Source of the DNA: an uncultured Candidatus Saccharibacteria bacterium
GTDB taxonomy: Bacteria; Patescibacteriota; Minisyncoccia; Phycocordibacterales; UBA918
Length of the DNA stretch: 64,000 nucleotides
Assembly (NCBI GenBank): GCA_964425625.1
Contig: CAYRMI010000002.1
Coordinates: 62,858 to 126,857 of the forward strand
Direction of reading: 5' to 3'
Shown here piece after piece: positions 14,553 to 63,929 of the stretch (position 1 is its first letter; the number at the start of each line of letters is the position of its first letter). Under the pieces are notes generated by a model. That model was given only the letters and a program-made list of their open reading frames with translations. It searched no databases and had not been told where the DNA came from. A program made the translations under genes and the position numbers.

Positions 14553-14553
14553 T

Positions 14554-15954: not shown

Positions 15955-15972
15955 TTCTTAATTTTTATATAT

Positions 15973-16347
15973 ATGCCAACAGCAGTAAAAAAAGTGGTTA
16001 CAAAAACTACTCCTAAAGTAGTAGCAAAAAAAGTAGCCGTTAAGCCAAAAAAGGTAGTGGCCAAAAAAGACGTAGCGGGTAAAAGCCTTGTGTATGCCGA
16101 TAGTGCAAAGTCTTTTTGGTTAAAAGATGGTCAGATCTTAAATAGTTTACAGGCCTTACATGATGCTTTAGTAAAAATGGATAAGGTAGTTTATGCTCAT
16201 CATGTCGGAAAAGGCAAAAATGACTTTGCAGAGTGGGTACAAGCAGTGCTTGGTGATAAGACCTGTGCGACTGATTTACGTAAAGCCAAATCAGCTGGTG
16301 GAGCCAAACTGGTGGTCGCCAAGTACTTAAAGGAATACCGACTATAA
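15973..16347 (+). CDS. Lysine-rich (AKK/VKK repeat) protein with an uncharacterised C-terminal domain.
   Basis: A histone H1-like basic N-terminal 40 aa is followed by a globular domain (KVVYAHHVGKGKNDFAEWV). It sits inside the alpha-glucan cluster. Confidence 0.45.
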   Translation: MPTAVKKVVTKTTPKVVAKKVAVKPKKVVAKKDVAGKSLVYADSAKSFWLKDGQILNSLQALHDALVKMDKVVYAHHVGKGKNDFAEWVQAVLGDKTCATDLRKAKSAGGAKLVVAKYLKEYRL

Positions 16348-16348
16348 T

Positions 16349-34221: not shown

Positions 34222-35127
34222 CTAGAAATTATTACTTTGGGTGAGTGTGTTGCTGGTGGTATTAAAAATAGCGTAGGATATTTGGGTATTTTCTATGACG
34301 GATGCATGGTTTTCGGGATTGGAGATAAGTAAGGTAGTTGCCCAGGCATCGGCGGTGACGGCCTTGGGGGCTTTGACGTAAATGCCCAGAGTATCGGGGT
34401 TTGGATTGGTGTTGGTTGAGGTTTCTCCTTTCTGGGTTGATGTGTCGACTATATGTGAGTACTCCTGACCAGCTACTTTCCAGCGACGTTTGTGGGTACT
34501 CGAGGCAGCAAAGCCTTGGTCCTGGAGGGAAGTCTGTTCAACGTACGTGCCAGGTTTAGTGGGATGCTCTAGGTAGATGGTAACAGGCACTCCTTGATCA
34601 CTAGTGGCGTACATATCACCACCGCCATTGATAAGGAAATAGGGGAAGCCAAGCTCGTGTAAATAATTAGCCAAGCGGTCAATCGCAAATCCTTTACCGT
34701 ATCCGCCTAGGTCAACCGCTCCGGCCGATAGAGTAATGAGTGAGTCAGAAATAGTAAGAGATTGCAGAGGGGAGGGAATAGTGAGTGGCTCAGCCACGGG
34801 AGAAAAACTATAATCGGCATCATAACCACGGGCGAGCAAGTGCTCGCCGACTAAGATATTGAATATACCATCAGTGTCTTTGTACAATTGCTGGCCCAGA
34901 TGTAGAAGCTCAATAGTTGTTTGGTCAGGTCGATCAAGTCTTTTAGTATAATTAATCGTACTAATTATCGAGTCGGGTTTGAAGCGCGAGTATTTGGCTT
35001 CAAAGTCGATTAAGAAAAGGCGGATGAGACCGCAGGTCTCATCCGCCTTTTCTTTACTAACATCACCAAATATTTCTACCAACCAAGTGGTACCAAGCGC
35101 AGGAATTGTTGGTAAGACAATCGACAT
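34222..35127 (-). CDS. apbE: FAD:protein FMN transferase (ApbE family).
   Basis: DLGGYGKGFAIDRLA, HIVDTSTQKGE and ADAWATTLL motifs. Confidence 0.8.
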   Translation of the reverse strand: MSIVLPTIPALGTTWLVEIFGDVSKEKADETCGLIRLFLIDFEAKYSRFKPDSIISTINYTKRLDRPDQTTIELLHLGQQLYKDTDGIFNILVGEHLLARGYDADYSFSPVAEPLTIPSPLQSLTISDSLITLSAGAVDLGGYGKGFAIDRLANYLHELGFPYFLINGGGDMYATSDQGVPVTIYLEHPTKPGTYVEQTSLQDQGFAASSTHKRRWKVAGQEYSHIVDTSTQKGETSTNTNPNPDTLGIYVKAPKAVTADAWATTLLISNPENHASVIENTQISYAIFNTTSNTLTQSNNF

Positions 35128-35134
35128 GCCCGGG

Positions 35135-35698
35135 TTAGAGTACTTGAGGCTCGAGCATCTTTTTTATTGCTTCATTGAAAGCCCCTGAAGTAAGGGAAGC
35201 GCCACCGACTCGTGACAGTGATATTTCAGACAATGATTTACCTACCACTTCAGTTTTGTAAGCGTTATCAAATCTTTCATGGTTGGGATTACCATAAGTT
35301 TCTTTATCATCATAAAGAACATTAGCATCCGTCACAATATCCCCAGTCATGGTTAATTCTACAGTTATCTTATGTTCTTTGCGAGCGGGAGTAAGGTAGG
35401 TCGACTCACCTTTAAGCAAGGTTGTACTCGGGGTGTCAGTAGTACCGTCATCGACAACTTCAATTTCTTCGGCTTGTTCTATCTCCTTAGTACGATTTAC
35501 TTCTTCAGTAACTAAGTCTGTAGTTGGGGCGTTAGCTTCTGGTCCCGGAATAAGAAAAAATGCTACTCCTAGCACGACGATTATTACTCCTAAGACAGCG
35601 ACAACAATTGGCATAACGATAGTTTGATTGATTAGAATAATGACAACTAATACATTATACTTAATTAATCCAAGAACTTCAAAATTACTAAGAGTCAA
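35135..35698 (-). CDS. Membrane-anchored FMN-binding domain protein (NqrC/RnfG-like).
   Basis: N-terminal TM anchor. The C-terminal FMN_bind-type motif SRVGGASLTSGAFNEAI matches the ApbE flavinylation consensus Dxx(S/T)GA(S/T). Confidence 0.65.
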   Translation of the reverse strand: MTLSNFEVLGLIKYNVLVVIILINQTIVMPIVVAVLGVIIVVLGVAFFLIPGPEANAPTTDLVTEEVNRTKEIEQAEEIEVVDDGTTDTPSTTLLKGESTYLTPARKEHKITVELTMTGDIVTDANVLYDDKETYGNPNHERFDNAYKTEVVGKSLSEISLSRVGGASLTSGAFNEAIKKMLEPQVL

Positions 35699-35716
35699 AA
35701 ACTCATAAATTTAGTT

Positions 35717-37276
35717 ATGTTAGCTGTTTTGCAAAAAGGGTGGCAAATTATCGAAAGAAAATTGGACAGAACCGCGATGTATCGCACAGTGACCTTGGCC
35801 CTTAGTTTTTTAGCCTTAGTTTCCATCGGCTTAGGTTTTACTGGACGTTTGCCGTACTCGGGCCCAGAGCAATTAATATCTTTAGTAGTCGCCTTAGCTA
35901 CAGCGCTAGGGGTGAATTATGTCTGTAGTCGAATATGGAAAGTGGCTGTCAACCAAGAGTCGGCGGTTATTACGGCGCTTATCTTGTATTTCTTAATTAT
36001 TCCGGTAGAACAATCTAAACTTGAAGATTTATGGGTTATAGCCACGGTGGTGGCTTTGGCGGTTATATCAAAATTTGTCATCGCTTGGCGTAAACAACAC
36101 ATCGTAAATCCGGCGGCTATTGGTCTAGTACTGATGGCTGTGGCCTACGCGGTACTTCCATTACCGGGTTATTTTGAATCAGTTTGGTGGGTGGGGCAAA
36201 GAGAATTATTTCTACCCCTTTTGCTAGCCGGTAGTGCCGTAGTATTAAAAGTACGTAAGTGGGTGCCAGTTGCGACTTTTTTGCTGGTGGCTTTCGTGGT
36301 TTTTTTGTTTGAAGAATGGCGGTTTAGTGGCGATGTGTGGGGTAGGGCAGATTATTTCTGGCTCTCTGGGCCGAGCTTATTTCTAGCTTTCTTTATGTTG
36401 ACCGAGCCCTTTACTATGCCTCCGACGAGGAAGCTACAAGCCGTCTACGGTGGTTTGGTTGGTTTAATTTCTCAGACTACACTATTCATGCCTTTAGGGA
36501 TTAAAATGACTCCTGAGCTAGCACTGATCTTGGGTAACTTGGTCTTCTACCGGTTTACCCTCCGACGAAAACTCTACCTATCTTTGCAATCGGTGCGCGA
36601 GATAGCCAAACATACGTACGAGTTTGTTTTTATTAAACCAGTGGGTATTAAATTTAAAGCCGGGCAATATATGGAATGGATGCTTCCACACCCTGGAGCA
36701 GACAATCGAGGTGTTCGTCGTTATATTACTATCGCGTCATCGCCTCTAGATAACACCTTGCGAATAGGGGTTAGATTTGGGGGAGAAATTAGTAGCTTCA
36801 AAGCTGCCTTACTTAAACTGAAGCCCGGACAAACCATTATAGCTAGTCAATTAGGAGGAGATTTTGTTCTTCCCGTAGATAATACAAAAAAAACCGCCAT
36901 GGTCGCGGGTGGTATTGGCATTACGCCTTTCGTCAGTCAGATATCCCAAATGGAGCTTAGTAAAATTAGCTATGATACAGTTTTGTTTTACTGCAATAAC
37001 ACACTGGCTGAAGCAGCTTATAGGGATAGACTACAGGCTTCGCAGTTGATGATTCCACTTAAAGTGGTAAATGTTTTAGCTAAAGAGAGTGCGGTTGGGT
37101 GTGAGACTGGCTTCCTGACAGCCGAAACAATAAAAAGGTTTGCTCCTGATTACTTGGAGCGACTTTGGTATCTCTCTGGCCCACCGGGTATGGTTGATGC
37201 CTATGCTAAATTATTGCACGAATTAGGAGTGAGTAAGCGATATATAAAGAAAGATTTTTTCCCTGGACTAGCTTAA
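35717..37276 (+). CDS. Membrane oxidoreductase. An N-terminal NqrB/RnfD-like polytopic domain appears fused to a C-terminal FNR-type FAD/NAD(P)-binding reductase domain.
   Basis: N-terminus has about 8 TM helices and FFMLTEPFTMPPT...VYGGLVGL, which resembles the RnfD/NqrB FFMATDPxTSP motif. C-terminus has RYITIASSP (the RxYS flavin motif) and MVAGGIGITPFVS (the NAD(P) motif). Confidence 0.55.
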   Translation: MLAVLQKGWQIIERKLDRTAMYRTVTLALSFLALVSIGLGFTGRLPYSGPEQLISLVVALATALGVNYVCSRIWKVAVNQESAVITALILYFLIIPVEQSKLEDLWVIATVVALAVISKFVIAWRKQHIVNPAAIGLVLMAVAYAVLPLPGYFESVWWVGQRELFLPLLLAGSAVVLKVRKWVPVATFLLVAFVVFLFEEWRFSGDVWGRADYFWLSGPSLFLAFFMLTEPFTMPPTRKLQAVYGGLVGLISQTTLFMPLGIKMTPELALILGNLVFYRFTLRRKLYLSLQSVREIAKHTYEFVFIKPVGIKFKAGQYMEWMLPHPGADNRGVRRYITIASSPLDNTLRIGVRFGGEISSFKAALLKLKPGQTIIASQLGGDFVLPVDNTKKTAMVAGGIGITPFVSQISQMELSKISYDTVLFYCNNTLAEAAYRDRLQASQLMIPLKVVNVLAKESAVGCETGFLTAETIKRFAPDYLERLWYLSGPPGMVDAYAKLLHELGVSKRYIKKDFFPGLA

Positions 37277-41303: not shown

Positions 41304-42086
41304 TTAAGAGACAGGACGGATTTCGATGTAGCGTTTTTTCCAGGCGTTTTGGAATTTGGTAACGCTAATATTACCGTTACCATTTGGCTCTGCTGGGTCA
41401 TTGTAATAAACTGCCTCGTTCTCAATACTAGTAACAACTACTAAGTGGGGAATGGGGTTGGTGGGTTCAAAAGTGTAATGGACCGATACCATAACCGGAC
41501 CCTCTGCAACAGCTTCTTCTAGAGTGGCAAAAGCCTCTTTCATAGTAAGATGAGCTAGGCCATGACTGGCTCCAGTTAGACCATAATTTTTGGCAAGACT
41601 TATCAAACCGGCATGTGACCAACCCGCGCTGTCTACATAAGCTCCGGCGTTGATACCTTCATTGAGTAGGGTATCGATACTGACGGCCGGTTTGTAGTAA
41701 TCGATTAGCATACCCAAGCTGGCAATACCACAGCCAACCTTCTGCCAACTAGTTTTTGAAATGTCTGTAAACTGTGAATAGAAAGGAACGGACCGAACGA
41801 TGGCAGAACTATGTGAGGTAGGAACTGCTTTAGTGGCGCTTTTATTTTTCGTGGCTTCACTTGATTCTTTCTTCTCTTCTTCATCAGCCTGTTTTTTAAT
41901 TTTAATACGGTCAAACTTTTCGTATTGTGGTAGGTCTAGTAGGGAGACGGCGGTAAGAGAAGGCAAGGGAGGGGTGATAGTTTTGGTTGCCGGCGAGGTT
42001 TTGGTTCGCGCAAAGACAGAAGAGTACGCTACCAAAGAGAGCGTACTTAATAACATAAAACCAAGAACAATTGTTTTCTGTGACAA
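41304..42086 (-). CDS. Secreted peptidase C39-like (BtrH/YvpB-like) cysteine peptidase domain protein.
   Basis: Signal peptide and a Ser/Thr/Lys-rich linker. VPFYSQFTDISKTSWQKVGCGIASLGM places the catalytic Cys in context. A later PHLVVVT...YYNDP matches the His region. Confidence 0.6.
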   Translation of the reverse strand: MSQKTIVLGFMLLSTLSLVAYSSVFARTKTSPATKTITPPLPSLTAVSLLDLPQYEKFDRIKIKKQADEEEKKESSEATKNKSATKAVPTSHSSAIVRSVPFYSQFTDISKTSWQKVGCGIASLGMLIDYYKPAVSIDTLLNEGINAGAYVDSAGWSHAGLISLAKNYGLTGASHGLAHLTMKEAFATLEEAVAEGPVMVSVHYTFEPTNPIPHLVVVTSIENEAVYYNDPAEPNGNGNISVTKFQNAWKKRYIEIRPVS

Positions 42087-42146
42087 AGTTCTCCTATTTT
42101 ACCCTAGATAGATTATTGACACAATATCTAATCCGTGGCTCTGTAG

Positions 42147-43067
42147 CTAGCTTTTCACTTCCACTCTGGTTCCTAGGTCTGTCCAGTAGTAGAGTTTTTT
42201 GGCATCATTGGGTGATAAGTTGACGCAGCCGTGTGAGTATCTAGTACCAAAGCTATCGTGCCAATAAGCACCATGAATAACCGCTCCTCCATGAGTGAAG
42301 TACAAATTCCATGGTACACCCGGTAGATCATAAACTTGCTTGTCAGTTAAGTTGGGGAGCGGTCCTTGCATGTAGCGACTGGGCGTTTTTTTGAAGACAG
42401 AAAAGGTACCATTGGGAGTGGGAGTTAGTTCTAGTCCAGTGGAGATGGGTATTTCCATATAAACTAGATCATCTTCGTAAGCTGTCAGGGTTTGCTCTGA
42501 TTTGTCTACAACTATTTTTTTAAGTGAAGTAGTAGAATATTCATCTTCCCAGATGGTCAGGTCACCTTCGTCGTAGAGTATTTCTACTAAATCTGCTGAG
42601 ACATACCAGTCACTTTTGACTCTGTCTGGGTAGCGCAACCACTCATCAAAGACAATCTGGTACCATTCGGTCTTATCCTCACGAGTTACTTTGCCACCAA
42701 CTTTGAGGATAATGCCATTGCGCAACTTAGTGGCTACGTCAAATTCCGTACCGGGACCAGTTCTTACTAAGACACACTCGCCTTCGTAGTGGGGACCACA
42801 ACTGTCAGTTATCTCGACGTATTCAAAGAGTAGGTCCTCTACTTCGAGTATTGGATCTTCGTCGACCGAAAGTTCAGGAGGGATAATAAATACTTCCTTG
42901 GCTTGCAAAAATGGTCTAGTGAAAAAGTCCAAAGTCTCGGGACTGATTGGGTCATAATCTTGTGGTTTGTTTTGCATAAGAAAACGAGACAAAATAATGG
43001 TCAGTATAACGATAACCAGCGAAAGCGTTCCGACAATAATATAGTGTCTTTTACGTGATACAGTCAT
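42147..43067 (-). CDS. L,D-transpeptidase (YkuD domain).
   Basis: N-terminal TM anchor. C-terminal HGGAVIHGAYWHDSFGTRYSHGCVNLS carries the catalytic His/Cys motif. Confidence 0.8.
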   Translation of the reverse strand: MTVSRKRHYIIVGTLSLVIVILTIILSRFLMQNKPQDYDPISPETLDFFTRPFLQAKEVFIIPPELSVDEDPILEVEDLLFEYVEITDSCGPHYEGECVLVRTGPGTEFDVATKLRNGIILKVGGKVTREDKTEWYQIVFDEWLRYPDRVKSDWYVSADLVEILYDEGDLTIWEDEYSTTSLKKIVVDKSEQTLTAYEDDLVYMEIPISTGLELTPTPNGTFSVFKKTPSRYMQGPLPNLTDKQVYDLPGVPWNLYFTHGGAVIHGAYWHDSFGTRYSHGCVNLSPNDAKKLYYWTDLGTRVEVKS

Positions 43068-43127
43068 AACATTAAGTATATGCCTATAATCTTAAATGAC
43101 TAACCAATAGGAAGACAATACTAATGG

Positions 43128-46055
43128 TCACTCCGTAAAGGCGTTTGCCGAGAAAGGTGTTAGTAGTAATTGCAGAGAGATTAGAAATGGGCGTTTTTTG
43201 GGTAATATTTTCCCTATCGGGTTGGTTGAATTCGGGACTGTCACTTGTTTGATACTTGGAGTATCGCTTAGTTTAACTGGTTCCTCTAGTAGTGAGATTA
43301 TCACGTCTCTATTATTGGATGGAAGACGGTGGTCAATATCAGTCGGGGAGCTATCTAGTCCAGTAAATTTCTTGAATTCTACCATTTCTTCAATCTGATC
43401 TATGGTTAGTGGAAAATCACTTGTCGTGCCACAATATATATCATTAATTTTCTTCTGAGTGGTGTAATAAACAACTCCAGAGTCACGTTTGAGCCCCCAA
43501 GGATACAGTACTTCACTGGCGTAAAGTTGTTGGAAATCTCGGACGGCGATTTCAGTCTGAAGATCGAAGTTTCCGGTGACGACCAAATTGCTACCGAGGT
43601 GAGCTTTTAGAAAAGCCTGCAATTTTTTTACTTCCTCTACATCATTGGCTTGACCATACTTCATGTAGGTGGTTAGGTAGGGAGTACAATAGCTGGTCAT
43701 AGCACCGAGGACAGCGGGAGTTATCTCTCCAATACTAATAGTATGAGTGGAACTTTTTGAGGTGTAGGCCTTTCCTTTGGTAACAGAATCGTAGCCAGAA
43801 AAGCCAGTTACCTCAGCCGTATTTTTGTATTCACCAAAAGTAGCGTCTTGGGCAAATTCCATAGTATAAGTGAGGGTGATACTTTCCTTAGGACGGATAG
43901 TTCCCAGGTCCCAGTACTGCTCGCTACTAGTGGTCCCATTGGCATTGGCTAGACGGTCACGAACTAGTGCTTTGTAGAGAGGTCCGCCTTTGTTGGTGAC
44001 AGTGATTGTATAGTCGACTAAGCCACCGGGATTTGCGGCCTTGACGTTGGCAGTTTTTATTACTTCTAGGTTGGGTAAAGTGGTGTGGCCACGTGATTTA
44101 CCACCACCTACTGGTTTGCCAGCAAAAATTGATAGTAATTCAGTATTGTCAGCTTCATTGGCGTCTGGTTCGAATGATGAAACTACCGCTTGGCTGATGA
44201 TTTCGTGTTTTCCTAATCCTAATTGCTCACTTACTTTGGTTCTGATACTAACTTCCTTTGTCTCATGGGGGGCAATATTACCCAAATTCCAGTTACCGTA
44301 TTTTCCTCTAGTATCATTAAGAATTTCCTCTGGGGCAGAAAGGTAAACAGATTGATTTTCAGGTAGGAAATGATTGAGTTTTACGTCGGTAGCGGTTGCA
44401 TCACCATGGTTGGTGATAGTATAAGTATATTCAACTTCTGAACCAGGTAAGATGGGGTTTTGTAATGAAGTTGCTTTACCACCAAGCCACAGGTCAGGCT
44501 GTCCGAAGGCGATGTTACCACTCCAATCGCCAAAGATATCAAATACCAACAGGGCCCAATTTTGTCCTAAAATATTGGTGTTGGCTACGTTTGTTATATT
44601 TGTGGCAGAGTAGGCGTCGCCGGTTTTTATGAGGCCATTTTCGCCGGCTTTGTTGTCGCCGGTGAGGGCGTAGACAGAAACGTTATTTTTGACATTTGCC
44701 TGGTTGTTATTGTTGATTTCATTACGGTTACTAGAAATGAAATTTTGCTGTGAATTCGTGTTGTACAGGGTTATTCCATGTTCGGTTTCGGTCCAGGCAA
44801 TGCCTTCCGGTAGGCCTAAGATGTCGCCACTCCAATCGCCATGGACGCGTAGCACCAAAAGAAAATCATTGTCACCAAATAGATTGGTGTTTACTATATT
44901 ACTGACACTACTATCCGCGTAAGTATCTCCGGTATAAATAGCCCCGCTCGTCAATTCGTTTGCTCCAGTTTCTGACTCTGTGGTGAGTACGTTTTCGATC
45001 GTAGCTGAATTAGTAGCGCTACTGTTAAAATTTTGGAGAGATGAACCATTAGCACTGAAAAGACTATTTAGTAACTCTGCTCCCGGGAGGACTATATCTT
45101 CTGTATAGTCGCCAAAATTATTGAAAGCCAATAGTAGATAGTTACTATCAGTGATATTGGTGTTGGCGATATTTAGGAGGTTAGCGACAGCATAAGCATC
45201 ACCAGTATCTATCATACCACTACCAATTTCATTAGCACCAGTTTGGGCTCTAACGATTATTTCGTTGGTAATACTAGCTTCGTTGGTCGTATTTATGTAA
45301 GTAGTTTTGCCCTCCCCAGAACAGATTGAAGGAGCACAAGCGACGGTAGATTCTGATGTTTGGGTGTCAGTGAAAACATTAAAGGCCTCTCGAAGGTCAA
45401 GAGGATTAACACCTAAAACTTCATTAAAAAATCCAATTAAACCGGTGGAATTAAAAATATTGGTATTTACTACGTTGACAATATTGGCGTAGGCAATTGC
45501 GTCGCCGGTGAGGATAACTGAACTCGTACCTGAAGCTTCATTGTCTCCGGTCTCAGCTATTACCTCTATGATGTTTGAAACAATCGCGGTGTTGGTGGTA
45601 GTAGAGATGATGGTCGGGTCAGTTATAGTTTGTGGGTTTTGAATGTCTGGAGAAAGAGTATGTGATAACTCTATTATTTCGTCACTAGGCAAATTTTCAT
45701 TGGAGGTCTCCTCGGTGGCTTTGTCTAACGAAACATCAACCACTACCTCGCTAACTCCATCTGTAGTGTCGATAGGTTCTGCTGTTGGGTTTGGTAAATT
45801 AGTAGCTTCGTTGAGGTTGATTGTTGTGTTTATTTCAGCTCCTGCTATCGCTTCACCTGTCTCTAGTACAGTGAGGGTTTCTGACGGTTCCATAACTGTG
45901 AGATTGATGGGATTTGTCACTTCTTGGTCAGTAATTATTTCTGTATTGGCTAGTATTGGAGAGAGGGGAGTTAGTAAAATGGCCATAATCACGAAAACGG
46001 CAAGAATTGTGAATGGAACACGATGGTTATGATGCTTTGTTGAGTAGTAATACAT
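43128..46055 (-). CDS. Large cell-surface protein. It has novel N-terminal ~50-aa repeats, DUF11-like repeats and a C-terminal PG_binding_1-like peptidoglycan-binding domain.
   Basis: Signal/anchor at the N-terminus. There are at least four repeats of the form ETGxNExxSGxxxTGDAxAxANxxNxxNTNI. DUF11-like segments include TITNHGDATATDVKLN and TVTNKGGPLYKALVRD. The C-terminus VEEVKKLQAFLKAHLGSNLVVTGNFDLQTEIAVRDFQ resembles PG_binding_1. Confidence 0.65.
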   Translation of the reverse strand: MYYYSTKHHNHRVPFTILAVFVIMAILLTPLSPILANTEIITDQEVTNPINLTVMEPSETLTVLETGEAIAGAEINTTINLNEATNLPNPTAEPIDTTDGVSEVVVDVSLDKATEETSNENLPSDEIIELSHTLSPDIQNPQTITDPTIISTTTNTAIVSNIIEVIAETGDNEASGTSSVILTGDAIAYANIVNVVNTNIFNSTGLIGFFNEVLGVNPLDLREAFNVFTDTQTSESTVACAPSICSGEGKTTYINTTNEASITNEIIVRAQTGANEIGSGMIDTGDAYAVANLLNIANTNITDSNYLLLAFNNFGDYTEDIVLPGAELLNSLFSANGSSLQNFNSSATNSATIENVLTTESETGANELTSGAIYTGDTYADSSVSNIVNTNLFGDNDFLLVLRVHGDWSGDILGLPEGIAWTETEHGITLYNTNSQQNFISSNRNEINNNNQANVKNNVSVYALTGDNKAGENGLIKTGDAYSATNITNVANTNILGQNWALLVFDIFGDWSGNIAFGQPDLWLGGKATSLQNPILPGSEVEYTYTITNHGDATATDVKLNHFLPENQSVYLSAPEEILNDTRGKYGNWNLGNIAPHETKEVSIRTKVSEQLGLGKHEIISQAVVSSFEPDANEADNTELLSIFAGKPVGGGKSRGHTTLPNLEVIKTANVKAANPGGLVDYTITVTNKGGPLYKALVRDRLANANGTTSSEQYWDLGTIRPKESITLTYTMEFAQDATFGEYKNTAEVTGFSGYDSVTKGKAYTSKSSTHTISIGEITPAVLGAMTSYCTPYLTTYMKYGQANDVEEVKKLQAFLKAHLGSNLVVTGNFDLQTEIAVRDFQQLYASEVLYPWGLKRDSGVVYYTTQKKINDIYCGTTSDFPLTIDQIEEMVEFKKFTGLDSSPTDIDHRLPSNNRDVIISLLEEPVKLSDTPSIKQVTVPNSTNPIGKILPKKRPFLISLQLLLTPFSANAFTE

Positions 46056-53512: not shown

Positions 53513-54940
53513 TTAATTGAGCATATATTTGATCCACGTTTCAAGCATACTTCCACCACCAGTATTTTCCCAAAGGCCTAAATTTAGAGTTCCTCCTGAC
53601 CCACAGCTGGCCGACCAGCAACCGTCATTCAAATACGTATTGCCAAGACCTGAGTCAAAAATAGTGCCACTATAGCTATTTGTCATGGTTGTTCCGAAAG
53701 TAACAGTGTCCTTATCTTGCCAATTAGGTTGTGGCACATCTCTAAATACTTCCACCATAACAGCATCAACTACCTTTTGATCGATTTCAATTATTTGTGT
53801 TTCTCTTTTGCCACCATTTGTTTGAGTTGTCAGAGAAATATAGTTGATTCCAAACTCATCTACAAAAACCTCAACCTCTCCTATCACAGACTGGTTGGAT
53901 TTATTGTATAGCTCTATTCCTATCTTATTATAGTTTTCGTCAGTAATATATCTGGCTTCAGTTCCATCCGGACCCTTCGCACTAATAGCTATTGAACCAT
54001 CTGGCTTGTTTGCATAAGCCACAACCGACCCAAAGGGTAACTCAACGACCGAAAGATCATTTGTAGTGGTAATCACAACCCCTTCCTTACTAATACCGTT
54101 AATGACGTTTTCTAGGATCGATTGGTCAATCATCATTTTATTGGCAGCGGTAAAAAAGTCGCTGCTGGTTTTAGGGAGACTTGTGAGTACGTTTACTTCG
54201 GGAGAAAACGAGAGTGGAACACCTGGATTCACGATACTTGTTTCCGCAGTCCACCCATCTACTCCACTCTTAAAGTTGATTGGCCACCAAATATATCCGC
54301 CGGCACTGACTGGGCTGCCTTTAACAACTCCAATTTCTCCTTTCTTTTGATTTCCAGCAATTGTGCCGTTGGGAGTAGATCGAACGTTTGTATTATCTAC
54401 TTTTACCACACTAGGTGATCCGACTGTGAATTTTGTAGAAACAGCTGGAGTGAGATTTGCTTTAAGTACCCATCCATCGGCGCCAGAATCAAAATTTACC
54501 ATCATCCAATAACTATTTACGACAGTTCTGGAACATAATGCAGCTGCTTGCAAATAACTACAGCCGACAGGAGAGTAGGTGTAGGTGGTCTGCACTTCAG
54601 GTCCAGCATTTATAGAGCCAATTGCACCAGTCGGTTGGGTGCCAAGTACCTTTGAATCATTTCTTGGATTTTGGTAAACATTAGATGTAGATTTTAATTG
54701 CGCTCGTCCACCGGCTTCTATTGAAGGTACGGCTACAGCAACGGCCGCAACGACGGATTCCTTTGATTCCGTGACCAGGGTTTGTTGAAATGAATTGAGT
54801 ATTTCTTCTAACGAGTCTATGATCTTTGACAGTATGTTCAGCTGGTCTCCTTCTGTTTTATTTATTTCGGTAGCTGACACAGTCGTAGCTTGAGTTATGA
54901 GAATGACTGTTATCAATACTGAAATTAATTTACTTTTCAT
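53513..54940 (-). CDS. Secreted protein with two bacterial SH3-like repeats and an uncharacterised C-terminal domain.
   Basis: Signal peptide. Two similar segments (NFDSGADGWVLKANLTP and INFKSGVDGWTAETSIVNPG). The Cys-containing C-terminus (CWSASCGSGG) is unknown. Confidence 0.45.
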   Translation of the reverse strand: MKSKLISVLITVILITQATTVSATEINKTEGDQLNILSKIIDSLEEILNSFQQTLVTESKESVVAAVAVAVPSIEAGGRAQLKSTSNVYQNPRNDSKVLGTQPTGAIGSINAGPEVQTTYTYSPVGCSYLQAAALCSRTVVNSYWMMVNFDSGADGWVLKANLTPAVSTKFTVGSPSVVKVDNTNVRSTPNGTIAGNQKKGEIGVVKGSPVSAGGYIWWPINFKSGVDGWTAETSIVNPGVPLSFSPEVNVLTSLPKTSSDFFTAANKMMIDQSILENVINGISKEGVVITTTNDLSVVELPFGSVVAYANKPDGSIAISAKGPDGTEARYITDENYNKIGIELYNKSNQSVIGEVEVFVDEFGINYISLTTQTNGGKRETQIIEIDQKVVDAVMVEVFRDVPQPNWQDKDTVTFGTTMTNSYSGTIFDSGLGNTYLNDGCWSASCGSGGTLNLGLWENTGGGSMLETWIKYMLN

Positions 54941-55765: not shown

Positions 55766-55997
55766 AATTTTCTCCAGTTTTGAAGGAACGTTATCCTTCG
55801 GATTTAAAGGAATCTAGCCTTGTAAACCATACAGTATATGAAGGACAATGCAAATGCCGTGAAAGTTTAAGCGAGAATGGTTTTTTAAAAAAGTCACTGG
55901 TTAAAGAAAATCAAATACGTGTTGCGCAAGCATGAAAGAGGGCGTAAATTAGTAAATGGTAGTTCATACAAGCATCTTTTCTTTGAAAGGAAAAGTC

Positions 55998-56729
55998 ATG
56001 ACAAGCCTCATCCCAGAAAAAGGTTTGGCGGAGCAAAAGAAAAAAATCGAATCTCTCGCACAGGACGTCATGCTACGACTGCAAAGTCGTTATGGTGTAC
56101 CCGCTTCGGGGCTTTATATCGGTTGGGAAGATTGTGGCGCACACCCCTTCGGTCGATTTGGCCGAGTCGCGGATGGTGTTCTTTATCTAAACCAGCACGA
56201 ACTAGTTGATATGCCTTATGACAAAGCGGTCAGGGAAACGCCAGTCACACTTTCCCTCAGGACTTCGGAAGGGGAAATAGAGATAACTTTTCCCTATGAC
56301 AAAGTAATGAATTGGCTCTATCCCTCTAGGGTACCAGCTATCTTTGAGATAGATAGACCGGCACTGACAGATGTTGATATCAAGGCAGGGATTACCGAGG
56401 TTGTCGTCACCTATGTAGTGGAGCAAATGGGGGGGTGGCTCGCTACTGAAGACACCAACGCTCGCTGTCTAAAAAATGGCATCATAAAATCGTATGGCCA
56501 CATTATGGCAGAGACGATGCCGACGGCGGTTACTGCAAACATTTGGAATGTCCATGACCCTGGGCTCCAAAGTTGGCGTGAGACCGAAGGAGGTTTTACT
56601 CTTCTGTACCCACATCTGAAAGATTACTTATATGGCGAAGTCATCAATTTGATACGGGATGCTGGACCACCAGTCTTACGTGAAAATCTCCCCGATTACG
56701 TAACAAGGTTACTGGCACCGCTCTATTAG
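55998..56729 (+). CDS. Hypothetical protein, 243 aa.
   Basis: The start is taken at the ATG preceded by AAAGGAAAAG. No motif recognised. Confidence 0.4.
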   Translation: MTSLIPEKGLAEQKKKIESLAQDVMLRLQSRYGVPASGLYIGWEDCGAHPFGRFGRVADGVLYLNQHELVDMPYDKAVRETPVTLSLRTSEGEIEITFPYDKVMNWLYPSRVPAIFEIDRPALTDVDIKAGITEVVVTYVVEQMGGWLATEDTNARCLKNGIIKSYGHIMAETMPTAVTANIWNVHDPGLQSWRETEGGFTLLYPHLKDYLYGEVINLIRDAGPPVLRENLPDYVTRLLAPLY

Positions 56730-56782
56730 TAGGTTCGCGGAAGATGAAGCATTGTGCCTGGCCAGAAATGGTCAGGCACTTT

Positions 56783-58363
56783 CTATATTATATTTCTCGC
56801 TTTAAGAATTTCCTTTACTTGCATTTCAGTGAGGGGGATCCAGGGAGAGCTTTCGGGATTGGCGGCCGAGGCGGCTGGGCTTTCACCCTGGTTCCACCAT
56901 TTGGCGCGGAAGGGGACACCTTCAAACATTACTCGATCACCCGCATCGTAGACGGCGTTGCCATACCATTGGGGAAACAAATAGAGCGGTAGTTCAAGTT
57001 TTTCCATCGGCTTTTCGCCGGGCAAGACGGGGCCAACCAGGCGCCAAGGAGTTTCCCAGGCTTGCAAGACTGGGTTGTCGGGTAAGTCATTTTTGGTCCA
57101 CCATTTAGCTTCGTAGACATTTCCGTGCCAGACGACTTTTGTGTCCTTTAAGTATATGCCGGTATCCCGCCAGATTTGGTAAGGACTGGTTTCCGGATCG
57201 TCAATAACGTGCTTACTAGTGTCTGGTTCCTCAACCGTCATCATCCTGGCGTTTTGCATTAGGTCCCCAGTAAAACCAATTCCGAGTACATTGGAAAAAG
57301 CAAATCGAGGTGAGGTTACACCACTACACAGATCTGACACTACTGAGAGCGTTACGTAGTTTGCGCCACAAGGAATATCTCGATTGGCCGACCACATTGA
57401 CATTCGACCAATCCCTTTCTCGCGGGCAAAGATGTTGAGCGCAACCGCGTCTTCGATAGAAAAGATTTCTTCTACCACGTCATTCTGACCAATCATCGGC
57501 GTGGCTCCAATTTTCCCCCAGATGGTAGAACTATTGAGACTCACTCCGGCTAGCTTGTATAAGACACTGAGTTGACGATGGGTTTCCAGTAGGGCATTTT
57601 CAGAAGCTTCGGCCATTGTATCATTTGGATTTTTACTACCGCCATAATCCATAGTCATAACATTTACTCCAGCTAGATCAAGCTCACTTTCGAGCACCTT
57701 ACTGACAGCGTTTGTTCCGTCTGTAGTGAGTCCTTGGGGGGCAACTGGTAAAGTGAGCCAGACGGCCAATTCTCGGTTTTCGGCGCGGTATTCTTTTTGT
57801 AGTTTGGCAATTACCCGAGCGCGTCTTTCGGCGGCTTCAAGGTTGGTCAAGCCTTCCTTTTCTAAATCAAGGTCAATAGTATTAATGTTATAGCGTTCGA
57901 TCACTGCTTGATAGGCTTTCGCCAGAGCTTCTTCATCGGTACATAGTACAGCCAGCTCAGAGTTTAGTAGACCACCAAAGGAGATCGCGATTCGTCCACC
58001 CTGGAGCTGGAAGTGAGCAATTCGTCTATCTAAGTCAAGTGCCTCGGCGGCCTCGTCTAGGGTGTAATAACCTCCCCAGGTGGGAGTACAAACGTCACTA
58101 GCGGAAGAAACGATAAAGGAAAGAATCACATCAGAATTATCAACTGCTCCTCTTTGTTCAAAGGCATAGAGTGGGGTGGAGGTGACATCTACGTAAGCTG
58201 CAAACCAAGGAGCAAAGCTCACTACCTCGGCTGTCTCTTGCCACTTACCAAAACTTAAGGTCGTACCATAAAAAAGACCGAGGATAATTATTATCGCTAG
58301 GAACAATCGGCGTAGTGAAAGTTGGCGACGAGTTTCAACAGTGACTGATTTTTGTGTTTCCAT
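56783..58363 (-). CDS. GH18 chitinase-like glycoside hydrolase with two C-terminal CBM5/12 chitin-binding modules.
   Basis: N-terminal TM/signal. GH18 motifs: SxGG (AISFGGLLNSE), DxDxE (NTIDLDLEKE) and MxYD (MTMDYGG). Two W-W CBM5/12-like modules follow (VVWHGNVYEAKWWTKND and VMFEGVPFRAKWWNQGE). Confidence 0.65.
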   Translation of the reverse strand: METQKSVTVETRRQLSLRRLFLAIIIILGLFYGTTLSFGKWQETAEVVSFAPWFAAYVDVTSTPLYAFEQRGAVDNSDVILSFIVSSASDVCTPTWGGYYTLDEAAEALDLDRRIAHFQLQGGRIAISFGGLLNSELAVLCTDEEALAKAYQAVIERYNINTIDLDLEKEGLTNLEAAERRARVIAKLQKEYRAENRELAVWLTLPVAPQGLTTDGTNAVSKVLESELDLAGVNVMTMDYGGSKNPNDTMAEASENALLETHRQLSVLYKLAGVSLNSSTIWGKIGATPMIGQNDVVEEIFSIEDAVALNIFAREKGIGRMSMWSANRDIPCGANYVTLSVVSDLCSGVTSPRFAFSNVLGIGFTGDLMQNARMMTVEEPDTSKHVIDDPETSPYQIWRDTGIYLKDTKVVWHGNVYEAKWWTKNDLPDNPVLQAWETPWRLVGPVLPGEKPMEKLELPLYLFPQWYGNAVYDAGDRVMFEGVPFRAKWWNQGESPAASAANPESSPWIPLTEMQVKEILKARNII

Positions 58364-58369
58364 AGATAA

Positions 58370-60607
58370 TTAATTAGTTTTACTGGTAGTTACACTTGGC
58401 CAATTTAAAAGGGGAATGCGCCAGGTAGTTTTGGGCTTACTTTCTTTGATCGGCACCTCAATATAAAGCCAGTCAGTGGCTGCTAACCACAAATCAACCA
58501 GCATATTTTTTGCGCCAATATAGGCCACGATAGCCCAGGTAGCAGTCAAAGCGTTAAAGCCAGCGAAAGCTGCATTACCCCAGTTTTGCCCTTCAATATT
58601 TCGCCACAGAGTGAAGAGAGAGAAACCGATAATTAAAAGTGGTGAGACTAAGTACAACCAGGCTGTGGCAGTGCGGTTCTTCACTTTCGGCGTACGAGCA
58701 AAGGGGGTCTTCTTGGTGGTGATAGCTTGCTGAAGTGATTTTAGAGTACCAGCAATATTAACTGGTAAGAGAATTAAGTTGAAACCATAAATACGGAAAA
58801 TGTCACTATATTTATAACGACAATATTTGAGGTCCATCGCCATAGCGATAAAATAGGGGGCAGCAGCTAATAGTACCAAGGGACTGAGGAGACGTCCGTC
58901 ATAGGGATAAGCGAGTAGAAAGACTAGTCCAAAACTTGACCAAGCAATGGAGAGCATGTAGTTGGTCCGAATCAAAAACTCGAGTCGAGAAATTGGTCTA
59001 CCAGCGTGCTTTCTAATATGACAAAGTTTTAAAAGTTTGGGAAAAATCAGCAATCCTCCGTTGGCCCAACGACGTCGTTGTACAACGAGTGAACCAAAGT
59101 CCGGAGGAGTAGCACTATAGCTTAGACGTTCAGGATAATTTAAGAGTCGCCAATTGTGTATGGCCATGTCGATACTTGATTCGGTATCTTCAATCACGGT
59201 GTGATCTTGTACATATCTTTTAATTTCAAAACCACCCACAAATTCCGTTTCTACAATATCTTCTAGAGCGCGCTTGCGGATTACGGCATTAGCGCCAACC
59301 CAGAAAGTAGCGTTGTAGTAGCTCATACCTTGGTGCAGGATGTGTTGAACATCGGTGGTGGCTCCGGCCAGACGTTCTAGGCGCGAAGAAGCACCACGAA
59401 AAGATGAGTAAGGAGTTTGTATTACCGCCACGTCAGAATTATTTGGCTGCTCAAGGGAATAAATCAAACGCGAACAGTATTCACGTAAGAGAATTGAATC
59501 AGCATCGAGGGTAAGAATATAATCACTATCTGGTATTACTAAATCGGCCTCACTAGCTTTTTTGGTCTCGAGCAAAATAGTCCCCTCAGAGGCTTCTACT
59601 TTACGGTACATGCCACCCATTAGTCCGATATATGAATTGAGGTTCATCGCTTTGTTTACTTCATGCGAAAGCGAGATGTAGCGTTTGCGTTCAAAAAAAT
59701 CTAACTTGGCGCGAAAAATCCAAACCAGACGGTTGCATAGTTGTTGCATCCGGCCACGAGAAATTTTTTCACCGCTTAGGTTAATGGTCGTAAGTTCAGA
59801 AGCTTCCAAGCGTAAGTCCTTGGCTAACTCGATAAATATTTGCTCAGCAAAAAATATATCGACATGGTCTTCGATTACTTCAGCTTTGGCTTTTTGTTCT
59901 AACCAACTAGCTGACCAGAGGTATTGTTCGATAATTCTTTCGACTGCTTGTTTGGTATAAGCAAAGTCTTTTTCTTGTAGCTCGGTTTGTAGCTCTATGG
60001 CTTTGACGTAGGGTTCACTAAGAAACGCTTCAATCTCAGCACCGAGAGCCTTAGTCTTGGTAATTCGCTCTACATCAGCGGGTTTAACATTGAATGGATT
60101 ATCGTCGATTAGTAAAACAACCCGCAAGTCTGAATGTTCTTGCAAGGCGGCTGAAAGTAGGGTTTTGCGAATAACCTGAACTTCTTCATTGTAGGAGGGT
60201 ACCAAAACAGTAATGGAGGATGGGTGCTTGGCAAAATGTTCATCCAGCAGTCGTTGGGGTGTACGCACATGCTTTTTAAAATTTTGTAATGCGCCTTGTC
60301 TAGTGATGAGGTAGATGAGAGCTGATAAAGTGAGCAAGGTGACAATGAACGTGTAACCAATTACTTCAGTGGTAAAGTTGTAGCTCTGCGGTCCATCAAT
60401 GAGTTGTCGAATAATGACCGAGGTAATGTACATCAACCAAAAAACAATCGTGAGTACAATAGCAATACGACTATAAGCAATAGCAAAATCAGTCGGCTTG
60501 GGATGGATGCTTGGTAGGGGATTGGTATTTTTTTCCGCCCCAAACTGACGTCGGAAATTGACAGGACTTAGTAGAGGAGAGGTGTTGTTTTCAGTTGAAT
60601 TTTGCAT
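58370..60607 (-). CDS. Processive family-2 glycosyltransferase (cellulose/chitin/NodC/HAS-like beta-glycan synthase).
   Basis: N-terminal TM helices. The motifs are D (VVLLIDDN), DxD (LTLDADSIL), and QxxRW (QRRRWANGG) followed by C-terminal TM helices. 745 aa. It is co-oriented with the GH18 gene and 6 nt upstream of it. Confidence 0.75.
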   Translation of the reverse strand: MQNSTENNTSPLLSPVNFRRQFGAEKNTNPLPSIHPKPTDFAIAYSRIAIVLTIVFWLMYITSVIIRQLIDGPQSYNFTTEVIGYTFIVTLLTLSALIYLITRQGALQNFKKHVRTPQRLLDEHFAKHPSSITVLVPSYNEEVQVIRKTLLSAALQEHSDLRVVLLIDDNPFNVKPADVERITKTKALGAEIEAFLSEPYVKAIELQTELQEKDFAYTKQAVERIIEQYLWSASWLEQKAKAEVIEDHVDIFFAEQIFIELAKDLRLEASELTTINLSGEKISRGRMQQLCNRLVWIFRAKLDFFERKRYISLSHEVNKAMNLNSYIGLMGGMYRKVEASEGTILLETKKASEADLVIPDSDYILTLDADSILLREYCSRLIYSLEQPNNSDVAVIQTPYSSFRGASSRLERLAGATTDVQHILHQGMSYYNATFWVGANAVIRKRALEDIVETEFVGGFEIKRYVQDHTVIEDTESSIDMAIHNWRLLNYPERLSYSATPPDFGSLVVQRRRWANGGLLIFPKLLKLCHIRKHAGRPISRLEFLIRTNYMLSIAWSSFGLVFLLAYPYDGRLLSPLVLLAAAPYFIAMAMDLKYCRYKYSDIFRIYGFNLILLPVNIAGTLKSLQQAITTKKTPFARTPKVKNRTATAWLYLVSPLLIIGFSLFTLWRNIEGQNWGNAAFAGFNALTATWAIVAYIGAKNMLVDLWLAATDWLYIEVPIKESKPKTTWRIPLLNWPSVTTSKTN

Positions 60608-62290: not shown

Positions 62291-62461
62291 ATGGATGATA
62301 AATCTTTAAGAGATTTTAATATCTTACTTCAAGCAAAACCCGAATTGGCTCGACAGAATTTAATAAATGAAATGCGAGTTTTTTTGGAGACTTACCAAAA
62401 AGCACTACAAAAAAGAGAAATAGAATGGCTTGAAGAACAAGCTCTCTTAGAAAATGACTAA
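62291..62461 (+). CDS. Small helical protein (56 aa), translationally coupled to the downstream calpain-like protease.
   Basis: Translated by hand as MDDKSLRDFNILLQAKPELARQNLINEMRVFLETYQKALQKREIEWLEEQALLEND. Its stop overlaps the downstream ATG by 8 nt. A TACAAT -10-like element lies upstream. Confidence 0.4.
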   Translation: MDDKSLRDFNILLQAKPELARQNLINEMRVFLETYQKALQKREIEWLEEQALLEND

Positions 62462-63929
62462 TATGGAAGGTTTAAACAAACAACACAAAGAAACAAAAAA
62501 ACCTGAATACGAAACTATTAATGATTCTTCAGATGCAACGTCTACTCATATAGGACAAACAGAAATAACTGAAGCCTCATACTTTGATTTAGTGGCGGAT
62601 GATCCGCTAATGTACGATTATAAGGTGGCAGATAAATCAGTTTTGTCTGAACCTGCCACCGGTTCTCTGGAGACGAATGTAATTTCAGTGGATGAAAAAA
62701 AAGAAGTAGATGAGACCGATACAGAACATATCGCCGAGTCTGAAATGATCGAGGGACTGGCGGAGACTTTAGAATCCGAAATAGTAAACATTGAGAAAGA
62801 GTTTCATTTGCCACCGGGAGAAGTAGATAAAGTGCGAGAAGAATTGGGGGTATCTAAAATTGTTTCTAGTATGCTAGAAAAATGGAAGAATCTTCTTCAT
62901 TATTCGGGGCTTCAAACTAAGAAATATCCCAAGACTAAAATTTCTGAAAGATATCATTCGGTAAGAGAATCTTTAAAAAACCGCGAAAGAGAAATAAGAC
63001 CTGAGGTTATTAGAGAGGCCCGCGAGGCGGCTACTAGGTTGTTTGAAGGAAGAGGACTCTTTTCGTTAACAAAGGAAGAATTCAATAATTACTTTATTTC
63101 AGACGAAGAATTTGATGCTGGACCACATTTGAAACAAGCTAATGTTGGTGACTGTTATTTAGTAGCTGCTATTCATGCACTGAGTCGATCCCCGAATTTT
63201 GAAACAATCTGTAGAGCCTCCATGTTACGCCAAAGTGACGGTAGTTGGGAAATTAGAATACCGCTGTTGGGTGATCAAAGTGATGTGATTAAGATTACTC
63301 AAGAAGAAATAAATTCTCAAACTAATGATAGATTCTTTAAGAAAAGCACGACCGGTGGTTCTCTTGACTTGCGTCATAAGCTATATTCACTTTCTGGGAA
63401 TGAAGGATTTAGAGCCTTAGAAGCGGCGTACATTAAGCATAAGTTTGGCAGTGTTGATCGCCTGGCTGCTGAAGGAGGATATGGTGAAGAGGTCCTGCTC
63501 CGATTAGGGGGTGATAACTTTGTTCATTACTCTATTCATTCAGCCACCTATGATCATAATGAAAAGATTATCGATTCTGGGCTACAATCAGTAACCGAGG
63601 AAAATCTTGCCTATTTGGATCATTATTTAGAGACTTTTGATTCTGAGACACATATAGCAACAGTAAACACAAATTATGGTGCTGGGAAGTTGGCCAACGT
63701 TTATCGAGTAGAAGGTACCTCAACTTTTCTAATACCTGGACATGCCTATTCACTTTCTGCAGTGGACATACAACGAAAGCTTGTCACCGTGGTAAATCCT
63801 TGGGATACTTCAAAATCAATAATCCTTAGTTTTGATCAGTTTAAAGAAAATTTTTCCTCATTGAGTGCTGTAAGAATTAACAACGCTAAGTTGTTGGCGC
63901 GAATGACAAAAGAAGGTGATATGTTATAA
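62454..63929 (+). CDS. Calpain-like (peptidase C2 family) cysteine protease with an acidic N-terminal region.
   Basis: Catalytic Cys motif QANVGDCYLVAAIHALS, His motif LIPGHAYSLSAV and Asn motif VTVVNPWD, all in calpain order. The N-terminal ~180 aa are acidic and low-complexity. Confidence 0.75.
   Translation: MTNMEGLNKQHKETKKPEYETINDSSDATSTHIGQTEITEASYFDLVADDPLMYDYKVADKSVLSEPATGSLETNVISVDEKKEVDETDTEHIAESEMIEGLAETLESEIVNIEKEFHLPPGEVDKVREELGVSKIVSSMLEKWKNLLHYSGLQTKKYPKTKISERYHSVRESLKNREREIRPEVIREAREAATRLFEGRGLFSLTKEEFNNYFISDEEFDAGPHLKQANVGDCYLVAAIHALSRSPNFETICRASMLRQSDGSWEIRIPLLGDQSDVIKITQEEINSQTNDRFFKKSTTGGSLDLRHKLYSLSGNEGFRALEAAYIKHKFGSVDRLAAEGGYGEEVLLRLGGDNFVHYSIHSATYDHNEKIIDSGLQSVTEENLAYLDHYLETFDSETHIATVNTNYGAGKLANVYRVEGTSTFLIPGHAYSLSAVDIQRKLVTVVNPWDTSKSIILSFDQFKENFSSLSAVRINNAKLLARMTKEGDML

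Follow-up and report, generated by a model that had tools for sequence, protein, structure and literature searches.

A conserved GT2 synthase and GH18 chitinase-type gene pair of Candidate Phyla Radiation bacteria and Actinobacteria suggests synthesis and trimming of a chitin-like polymer

Introduction

In bacteria, the association of a membrane-embedded glycan synthase with a dedicated hydrolase is exemplified by cellulose biosynthesis, in which the synthase BcsA is accompanied by BcsZ, an enzyme of glycoside hydrolase family 8 (GH8). Here, we report a gene pair which follows the same synthase–hydrolase logic with other components. It lies on the minus strand of a 64,000-nucleotide stretch of DNA from an uncultured Candidatus Saccharibacteria bacterium (contig CAYRMI010000002.1; this whole stretch is hereafter called the window) and encodes a family 2 glycosyltransferase (GT2) and a family 18 glycoside hydrolase (GH18) carrying two carbohydrate-binding modules of the CBM5/12 type. 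Compared to BcsA, with which it shares ~16% identity, the window synthase has two instead of four N-terminal transmembrane (TM) helices and a ~120-aa insertion between its DD and DxD motifs, while the PilZ domain and BcsB of the cellulose system are both missing from the cassette. The partner enzyme also differs, being a GH18 protein with CBM5/12 modules and not a GH8 enzyme.

Other described systems are relevant to this locus. PgaC/IcaA and MatB, the latter being a PgaC-like synthase of poly-N-acetylglucosamine (PNAG) (PMC5972031), belong to synthase-dependent systems producing N-acetylglucosamine (GlcNAc) polymers. By profile, PgaC is as near to the window synthase as BcsA is, and PgaB/IcaB-like carbohydrate esterase family 4 (CE4) domains are found in distant relatives of the window synthase. 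However, PgaC/IcaA systems comprise PgaD/IcaD and a deacetylase, both absent from the window cassette, which possesses instead a β-1,4-type chitinase, and the window synthase is almost double PgaC in size. Chitin synthases, NodC and class I hyaluronan synthases (HAS) resemble it in superfamily fold and in the chemistry predicted for its product. In fungi, too, chitin synthesis is accompanied by GH18 chitinases, which serve to remodel the wall. Plant CesA contains, as does the window synthase, a helical insertion between the first D motif and DxD, the plant-conserved region (P-CR), but the two insertions have no sequence similarity and the Zn-finger and class-specific region (C-SR) of CesA are lacking in the window protein. 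In the Streptomyces CslA–GlxA–CslZ–LpmP system for the tip glycan, an actinobacterial GT2 enzyme has dedicated extracellular polysaccharide-active partners (PMC5972031). By description, that system is set apart by a synthase of another family and by its partners, a copper oxidase, a GH6 enzyme and an AA10 enzyme.

To our knowledge, bacteria do not make chitin, aside from the oligomers produced by NodC and a few unproven, eukaryote-derived CHS genes. Such CHS genes, which are different from the window synthase, have been reported in Proteobacteria (Goncalves et al., 2016; PMC5122149). GH18 genes from the Candidate Phyla Radiation (CPR) have been interpreted as functioning in chitin degradation (PMC5581439). 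Full-text literature searches returned no description of the GT2–GH18 pair, nor of a GH18 protein with CBM5/12 modules as partner of any bacterial synthase.

A two-gene cassette conserved in CPR bacteria and Actinobacteria

The two genes are co-oriented, with the GT2 gene upstream and a spacing of 6 nt. The elements of the locus are the following:

58370..60607, minus strand: GT2 synthase gene, 745 aa (open reading frame)
58364..58369, minus strand: intergenic gap TTATCT, 6 nt, from the GT2 stop to the GH18 start (sequence)
56783..58363, minus strand: gene of the GH18 chitinase homologue, 526 aa, membrane-anchored, with two CBM5/12 modules (open reading frame, phmmer against PDB, Foldseek)
56754..56779, unstranded: hairpin with an 11-bp stem directly after the GH18 stop, between convergent genes (pattern scan only)

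We infer that both genes constitute a single transcription unit, within which their translation is probably coupled. The hairpin is likely the terminator of this two-gene unit, although terminator-like matches in the region do not exceed those in shuffled sequences. A promoter pattern scan also gave no more than shuffles.

Thirteen related loci were fetched besides the window's own contig; as two pairs are near-identical (L006/L007 and L009/L010), they correspond to ~11 distinct organisms. GT2 and GH18 are adjacent in all 13 of them. In the eight CPR loci (GC content 33–53%), GT2 precedes GH18 on the same strand and only a few nt separate the two, as in the window, while in the five actinobacterial loci GH18 is found immediately upstream and divergent. 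The latter loci derive from two Propionibacteriaceae metagenome-assembled genomes (MAGs; 70% GC), Clavibacter michiganensis, Paenarthrobacter nitroguajacolicus and Leucobacter. By locus, the divergent arrangement is found in L006/L007, L012, L013 and L014, and the co-oriented one in the window, L002–L005, L008–L011 and L015. An all-versus-all comparison of eight loci and the window revealed no third conserved cassette gene, in agreement with the gene tables of the other loci. The closest homologues of both proteins are labelled Kaiserbacteria, Moranbacteria, Parcubacteria, Saccharibacteria or Patescibacteria. Beyond what the initial annotation could know, the pair is widespread, throughout CPR and in many cultured Actinobacteria, and is not particular to this genome.

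The two genes are not only conserved together, they also diverge together: over the loci, the percent identity of GT2 to the window copy co-varies with that of GH18 (r = 0.93, n = 12). In addition, P0366 (1345 aa), a 48%-identical relative of the synthase, joins in one chain the synthase and, beyond a Pro-rich linker, the helix of the anchor, the GH18 domain and the two CBMs, and matches the window GH18 protein over 498 aa (39% identity, E 5e-120). This fusion fits the predicted topology, in which a cytosolic C-terminus of the synthase would be followed by one helix placing the GH18 domain outside. As none of the related loci examined has the two genes apart, their pairing goes beyond chance. 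Collectively, the occurrence of a two-gene cassette in variable contexts, its co-divergence and its natural fusion strongly support, at the level of sequence comparison, a functional coupling of GT2 and GH18.

The GT2 protein is predicted to be a membrane-embedded processive synthase

The following regions were delineated in the synthase by hydropathy, alignment and AlphaFold2 (AF2) modelling:

60293..60493, minus strand: N-terminal TM helix pair, residues ~39-105 (hydropathy 39-70 and 80-105; AF2 helices 40-71 and 76-112)
60092..60226, minus strand: first part of the GT-A domain with UDP-binding DD168-169, residues 128-172 (aligned to BcsA VLCDDG and NodC VVDDGS)
59714..60082, minus strand: helical insertion between DD and DAD, residues 176-298 (AF2 helices; predicted local distance difference test score, pLDDT, of the block mostly 85-95)
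59048..59713, minus strand: second part of the catalytic domain, residues 299-520, with KAMN319-322, DAD368-370, ED473-474 and QRRRW510-514 (aligned to BcsA DxD/TED/QxxRW and to PgaC)
58466..58987, minus strand: C-terminal membrane region, residues 541-714, with the gating-loop-like FARTPK636-641 (AF2 helices 541-566, 576-595, 602-630, 650-672 and 676-697)

The protein matches the GT2 Pfam family PF13632 (9.3e-34). Its motifs DD168-169, KAMN319-322, DAD368-370, ED473-474 (at the 'TED' position) and QRRRW510-514 are constant across 41 homologues and align to the BcsA motifs for UDP binding, metal binding, the catalytic base and the acceptor, K319-A-M-N322 being a motif of the BcsA type. Likewise, F636, A637, R638, T639, P640 and K641 are constant in the 41 homologues. 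Hydropathy analysis located hydrophobic segments on both sides of the catalytic domain, in agreement with the helices of the AF2 model (pLDDT 72.7; predicted template modelling score, pTM, 0.75). In the predicted layout, a pair of N-terminal TM helices precedes the GT-A domain, which is cytosolic, and the C-terminal part is a bundle comprising about four TM helices together with interface helices, followed by neither a PilZ nor any further C-terminal Pfam domain. Enzymes which polymerise UDP-sugars and extrude the chain via a channel of their own have this architecture. With its GT-A motifs and a TM-flanked catalytic domain accompanied by interface helices and a gating loop, the protein is therefore predicted to be a membrane-embedded, processive and inverting synthase.

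The ~120-aa insertion (residues 176-298) is specific to this GT2 family and conserved throughout it. It has no Pfam identity even at E<=10, and it occupies what we take to be the topological site of the P-CR of plant CesA, the proteins which provide the top Foldseek matches of the GT2 model.

Comparison with characterised GT2 families gave, for each of them, scores far below the NCBIfam cut-offs: 74.3 bits for TIGR03030 (CelA; cut-off 699), 35.3 for NF008558 (likewise a cellulose synthase profile; cut-off 992), 45.5 for TIGR03937 (PgaC_IcaA, the second-best match; cut-off 422), ~35 for MdoH, also far under its cut-off, and 19 for NodC (TIGR04242; cut-off 550). The synthase is therefore outside every characterised family. 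Its assignment as a cellulose synthase of the BcsA/CelA type was further rejected on the lack of PilZ, of an adjacent BcsB and of any conserved third gene, and its assignment as a PNAG synthase on an alignment limited to 248 columns and the lack of PgaD/IcaD or PgaB/IcaB neighbours. As to the lineage of NodC, chitin synthases and class I HAS, neither TIGR04242 nor Pfam Chitin_synth_1/2 recognised it, its kinship with chitin synthases being weak, and it is not a dolichyl-phosphate-sugar transferase. QRRRW, for its part, is not diagnostic of chitin synthases.

Profile–profile alignment by hhalign placed the family at similar distances from E. coli PgaC (E 3.2e-07, 248 columns, 93% probability) and E. 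coli BcsA (E 5e-07, 234 columns) and much further from S. meliloti NodC (1e-4, 45 columns). When the family profile was searched against PDB sequences, BcsA alone was detectable (1.5e-11). By these comparisons, the synthase represents a distinct clade which is equidistant from BcsA and PgaC and more distant from NodC and chitin synthases.

The partner is a chitinase-type GH18 protein with two CBM5/12 modules

The GH18 protein is organised as follows:

58244..58315, minus strand: signal-anchor helix, residues ~17-40 (hydropathy 13-40; AF2 helix 17-44; retained as internal TM linker in P0366)
57290..58207, minus strand: (β/α)8 catalytic domain of GH18, residues 53-358, with SFGG128-131, D164-L-D166-L-E168 and MTMDYG236-241 (phmmer, AF2)
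57029..57187, minus strand: CBM5/12 module 1, residues ~393-445, YEAKWWT (PDB chitin-binding module of Moritella Chi60 at 396-429; PF02839)
56828..56980, minus strand: CBM5/12 module 2, residues ~462-512, FRAKWWN (best PF02839 stretch 465-500; PDB 4txg 464-503 and 2d49 465-499)

The Pfam GH18 profile PF00704 scores 26.6 bits, under its gathering cut-off of 29.6, as is typical of a divergent subfamily. In phmmer searches against PDB, the protein matched a Streptomyces chitinase (9buf, 5.6e-46) and the Pyrococcus furiosus chitinase (2dsk, 1.2e-20), its DLDLE sequence aligning on the DFDIE of both. The AF2 model superimposed on 9buf with a TM-score of 0.85 (Foldseek 1.5e-24) and every top match was a chitinase. 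SFGG128-131, D164, D166 and E168 are constant in 28 homologues. These data support a bona fide chitinase-type domain with an invariant DxDxE motif.

PF02839 scores 35.8 bits (cut-off 26.2) over two stretches, each with an aromatic pair. In module 1, Y417, A419, K420, W421 and W422 are constant among homologues. In module 2, which is matched by the chitin-binding domain of S. griseus ChiC (2d49), only K488 and W489 are constant, A487 and W490 being nearly so. The sole hydrophobic segment of the protein is N-terminal, and a type-II membrane anchor is therefore predicted, with the enzyme located outside.

Most of what the initial annotation had proposed for the two genes agrees with these results. 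The synthase had been called a processive GT2 on its D, DAD and QRRRW motifs and its flanking TM helices, and this description holds (PF13632, motif conservation, hydropathy and AF2). The GH18 gene does lie six nt downstream in the same orientation on the minus strand, according to the open reading frame coordinates, and the anchor (a single N-terminal hydrophobic segment) and two CBM5/12 modules (PF02839 and PDB chitin-binding modules matching both) it had attributed to the protein were recovered. SxGG and DxDxE were also correctly recognised, while 'MxYD' was a misreading: the Tyr/Asp motif is M-T-M-D-Y (236-240), as in 9buf and 2dsk. The observations that would have spoken against its proposal were a GT2 protein grouping firmly with cellulose synthases or Dol-P-sugar transferases, loss of the catalytic Glu and loss of adjacency in relatives; the synthase falls into neither group (74 vs 699 bits for CelA; BcsA and PgaC equidistant by hhalign), E168 is invariant on alignment and adjacency is kept in 13 of 13 loci.

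Predicted product and alternative explanations

GH18 catalysis is substrate-assisted and proceeds through an oxazolinium intermediate formed from the substrate's own 2-acetamido group. As this chemistry needs a 2-acetamido sugar and the closest relatives of the GH18 protein are β-1,4 chitinases, β-1,4-linked GlcNAc is the most economical product. We thus regard as moderately probable that the cassette makes and processes a secreted GlcNAc-containing β-glycan, most likely β-1,4-linked, i.e., chitin-like. Conservation of the pair suggests, rather than proves, that its carriers make and trim such a polymer, and the PgaB/IcaB-like CE4 fusions of more distant relatives lend indirect support to a GlcNAc polymer.

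In the proposed mechanism, the synthase would build the chain from a UDP-sugar on the cytosolic side and extrude it by way of its own TM channel. The GH18 protein, translated from the same transcript, would be tethered by its single N-terminal helix, exposing the barrel and the two chitin-binding modules outside. The CBM5/12 modules could then bind the emerging chain and GH18 cut it, resulting in release, sizing or remodelling, as BcsZ does for cellulose. The biological role would be in a matrix, adhesion or the envelope and, in CPR bacteria, may be host attachment.

Several points weigh against this proposal. The UDP-GlcNAc donor, the β-1,4 linkage and the action of GH18 on the synthase product are deduced from context, and no gene for UDP-GlcNAc supply was found among the scanned open reading frames of the window. 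GH18 could instead target exogenous chitin or peptidoglycan, and the CBM5/12 family also holds cellulose binders. For both proteins, AF2 model confidence is moderate (pLDDT 72-73), and the topology is a predicted one. The P0366 fusion is the only GT2–GH18–CBM fusion among 390 family members sampled and lies on a 6-kb metagenomic contig, where loss of a stop codon or misassembly is possible; it is therefore supportive and not decisive. Of the chitin-like synthesis and remodelling pair advanced by the initial annotation, the functional coupling between GT2 and GH18 has strong support, while a β-1,4-GlcNAc product is deduced from the partner enzyme, the synthase itself being nearer to BcsA and PgaC than to NodC and chitin synthases.

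The best-surviving alternative, although an unlikely one, is a poly-GlcNAc of another kind, such as β-1,6-linked PNAG, a mixed-linkage polymer or a GlcNAc heteropolymer, to which GH18 would have adapted like the glycoside hydrolase domain of PgaB to PNAG. We know of no GH18 enzyme that cuts β-1,6-linked GlcNAc. The hhalign match to PgaC, as good as that to BcsA (E 3.2e-07 vs 5e-07), the rank of TIGR03937 as second-best NCBIfam match and the PgaB/IcaB-like CE4 fusions in distant family members are all consistent with such a product, as is the precedent of Streptomyces MatB, a GT2–CE4 fusion which makes PNAG (PMC5972031). However, with 45 bits the PgaC profile stays well short of its 422-bit cut-off, the CE4 fusions are confined to a distant clade (35–43% identity) and do not extend to the GH18-paired one, the close structural relatives of GH18 are all β-1,4 chitinases, and the ligand of CBM5/12 modules is chitin.

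It is also conceivable, with a low probability, that the product of the synthase, which could consist of any sugar, is no substrate of GH18 and that the latter locally cuts the cell's own peptidoglycan (GlcNAc–N-acetylmuramic acid), allowing the nascent chain to cross a Gram-positive-type wall. The same role has been proposed for the lytic polysaccharide monooxygenase and glucanase partners of Streptomyces CslA, and some GH18 enzymes have lysozyme activity. The carriers found, Actinobacteria and CPR bacteria, all have thick, single-membrane envelopes, GH18 is tethered beside the synthase, and genes with functions in the wall are present in the window (those of BacA, PG-binding proteins and a YkuD L,D-transpeptidase). 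The nearest relatives of the window GH18 protein are nevertheless chitinases and not lysozyme-type enzymes, its two CBM5/12 modules point to chitin-like ligands, and the CE4 deacetylase fusions of relatives are explained no better.

No more probable is a synthase making cellulose or another β-glucan beside an independent chitinase used for feeding on or attacking chitin-containing organisms, their adjacency reflecting co-regulation or chance hitch-hiking: the best PDB and NCBIfam matches of GT2 are cellulose synthases, its KAxN, FxxGxxAV and TED motifs are of the BcsA type and CPR GH18 genes have been read as chitin-degrading (PMC5581439), but the pair persists in 13 of 13 loci from two phyla despite inversion of orientation and complete neighbour turnover, co-diverges (r = 0.93) and occurs as one fused polypeptide, no BcsB, PilZ or endoglucanase partner is present, and the CelA score is 74 against a 699-bit cut-off.

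The wider synthase family and its origin

A search of 1.84 billion cluster representatives retrieved 485 family members at E<1e-30. Querying with the Propionibacteriaceae copy led to many cultured Micrococcales, including Arthrobacter, Paenarthrobacter, Clavibacter, Leifsonia, Agreia, Cryobacterium, Microterricola and Leucobacter, in which these proteins are annotated just as 'glycosyltransferase family 2 protein'. Accessory domains were found in long representatives: a C-terminal CE4 polysaccharide deacetylase in 6/21 (in P0485, PgaB/IcaB-like with 170 bits), an EAL domain in 4/21 (among them P0363, P0368 and P0372, where it is C-terminal), an LCP ligase domain in 2/21, and an acyltransferase-3, a DMFase-like domain and GH18 with CBM in one each. 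As mentioned above, the CE4 fusions belong to a distant clade. Accessory domains of these kinds are a hallmark of N-acetylated polysaccharides which are secreted or linked to the wall.

In Propionibacteriaceae, GGDEF-EAL genes border the pair (L006 483-2885), and in Clavibacter they are found nearby (L012 15652-17979). The actinobacterial cassette is thus probably under cyclic di-GMP control, as judged from these neighbours and the EAL fusions, whereas the CPR loci have no cyclic di-GMP elements. A GDSL/SGNH hydrolase gene is located directly after GT2 in Clavibacter (L012 10349-11053) and an α/β-hydrolase (Abhydrolase_3) gene in Paenarthrobacter (L013 10265-11233); the encoded proteins may be esterases or deacetylases tailoring the polymer. 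All these neighbours, GDSL/SGNH, α/β hydrolase and GGDEF-EAL, are absent from the CPR loci.

In a neighbour-joining tree with midpoint root, the only type of family tree computed, the CPR sequences sampled form a monophyletic group, with a Micrococcales/Propionibacteriales clade as its sister. The successive outgroups, whose taxonomy was deduced from composition, have an amino-acid composition of the high-GC type. This position of the CPR clade beside high-GC lineages points, tentatively, to a transfer from Actinobacteria to CPR, by which the CPR copy was probably acquired.

A more far-reaching proposal can be formulated, which we consider doubtful. Many Actinobacteria and CPR bacteria would make true chitin, as fibrils of β-1,4-poly-GlcNAc, using a synthase of the BcsA/PgaC lineage independent of eukaryotic chitin synthases and NodC, with the insertion acting as a P-CR-like oligomerisation device. 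In CPR bacteria, the cassette would be an acquisition from actinobacterial donors, maintained by strong selection, for instance because it provides the episymbiont with a fibre for attachment or a layer of its envelope.

Genomic context of the cassette in the window

The window resembles an ordinary stretch of a CPR/Patescibacteria chromosome, encoding histidyl-tRNA synthetase (HisRS), an F-type ATPase, an aldolase, BacA, an L,D-transpeptidase and DNA-repair proteins. The β subunit of this ATPase belongs to a cluster, defined at 90% identity, in which a 'Candidatus Paceibacteria' MAG is represented. No tRNA or Rfam feature was found in it. The GC content of the cassette is unremarkable (GT2 42.9%, GH18 47.9%, window 43.8%), and its neighbours are ClC, a calpain-like protein and unknowns. 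Among the genes near the cassette, 53513-54940 (minus strand) encodes a secreted-looking protein of 475 aa and 55956-56729 (plus strand) a protein of 257 aa, both with no Pfam match and no counterpart in related loci. The calpain-like protein (62454-63929, plus strand; 491 aa) is acidic in its N-terminal half and contains a cysteine protease domain of the calpain type (PF00648, 29.8 bits; active-site region GDCYLVAA), which is eukaryote-like and unusual for a CPR genome.

Further away, a GT4/GT5 glycogen-synthase-like gene is clustered with a GH57 gene and a GH15 glucoamylase-like gene at 13329-18322 (plus strand), forming an α-glucan storage and turnover module in a small genome. At 41304-46055 (minus strand), a 975-aa surface protein (DUF11/CARDB/DUF7507 repeats and PG_binding_1) adjoins a YkuD L,D-transpeptidase and a C39-type peptidase, in what may be the locus of a cell-wall-anchored adhesin. 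Finally, at 34222-37276, an ApbE flavin transferase adjoins a fusion of an RnfD/NqrB-like membrane domain with an NAD-binding oxidoreductase domain.

Significance

If the cassette indeed makes and trims a chitin-like polymer, a new bacterial extracellular polymer would be added to those described, and an independent origin of chitin synthesis would be implied. 'Chitinase' genes of CPR bacteria in metagenomes would have to be reread as genes for processing a self-made polymer and not for chitin degradation. Plant immunity may also be touched, as Clavibacter causes disease in plants and fragments of chitin elicit immune responses. The interest of the system lies in a product unexpected in bacteria and in the strong conservation of the cassette in genome-reduced CPR bacteria. 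Since the cassette is also present in the easily grown Arthrobacter, Paenarthrobacter, Clavibacter and Leucobacter, the hypothesis is directly testable, and work in these cultured carriers could help to explain a highly conserved gene pair of uncultured CPR bacteria.

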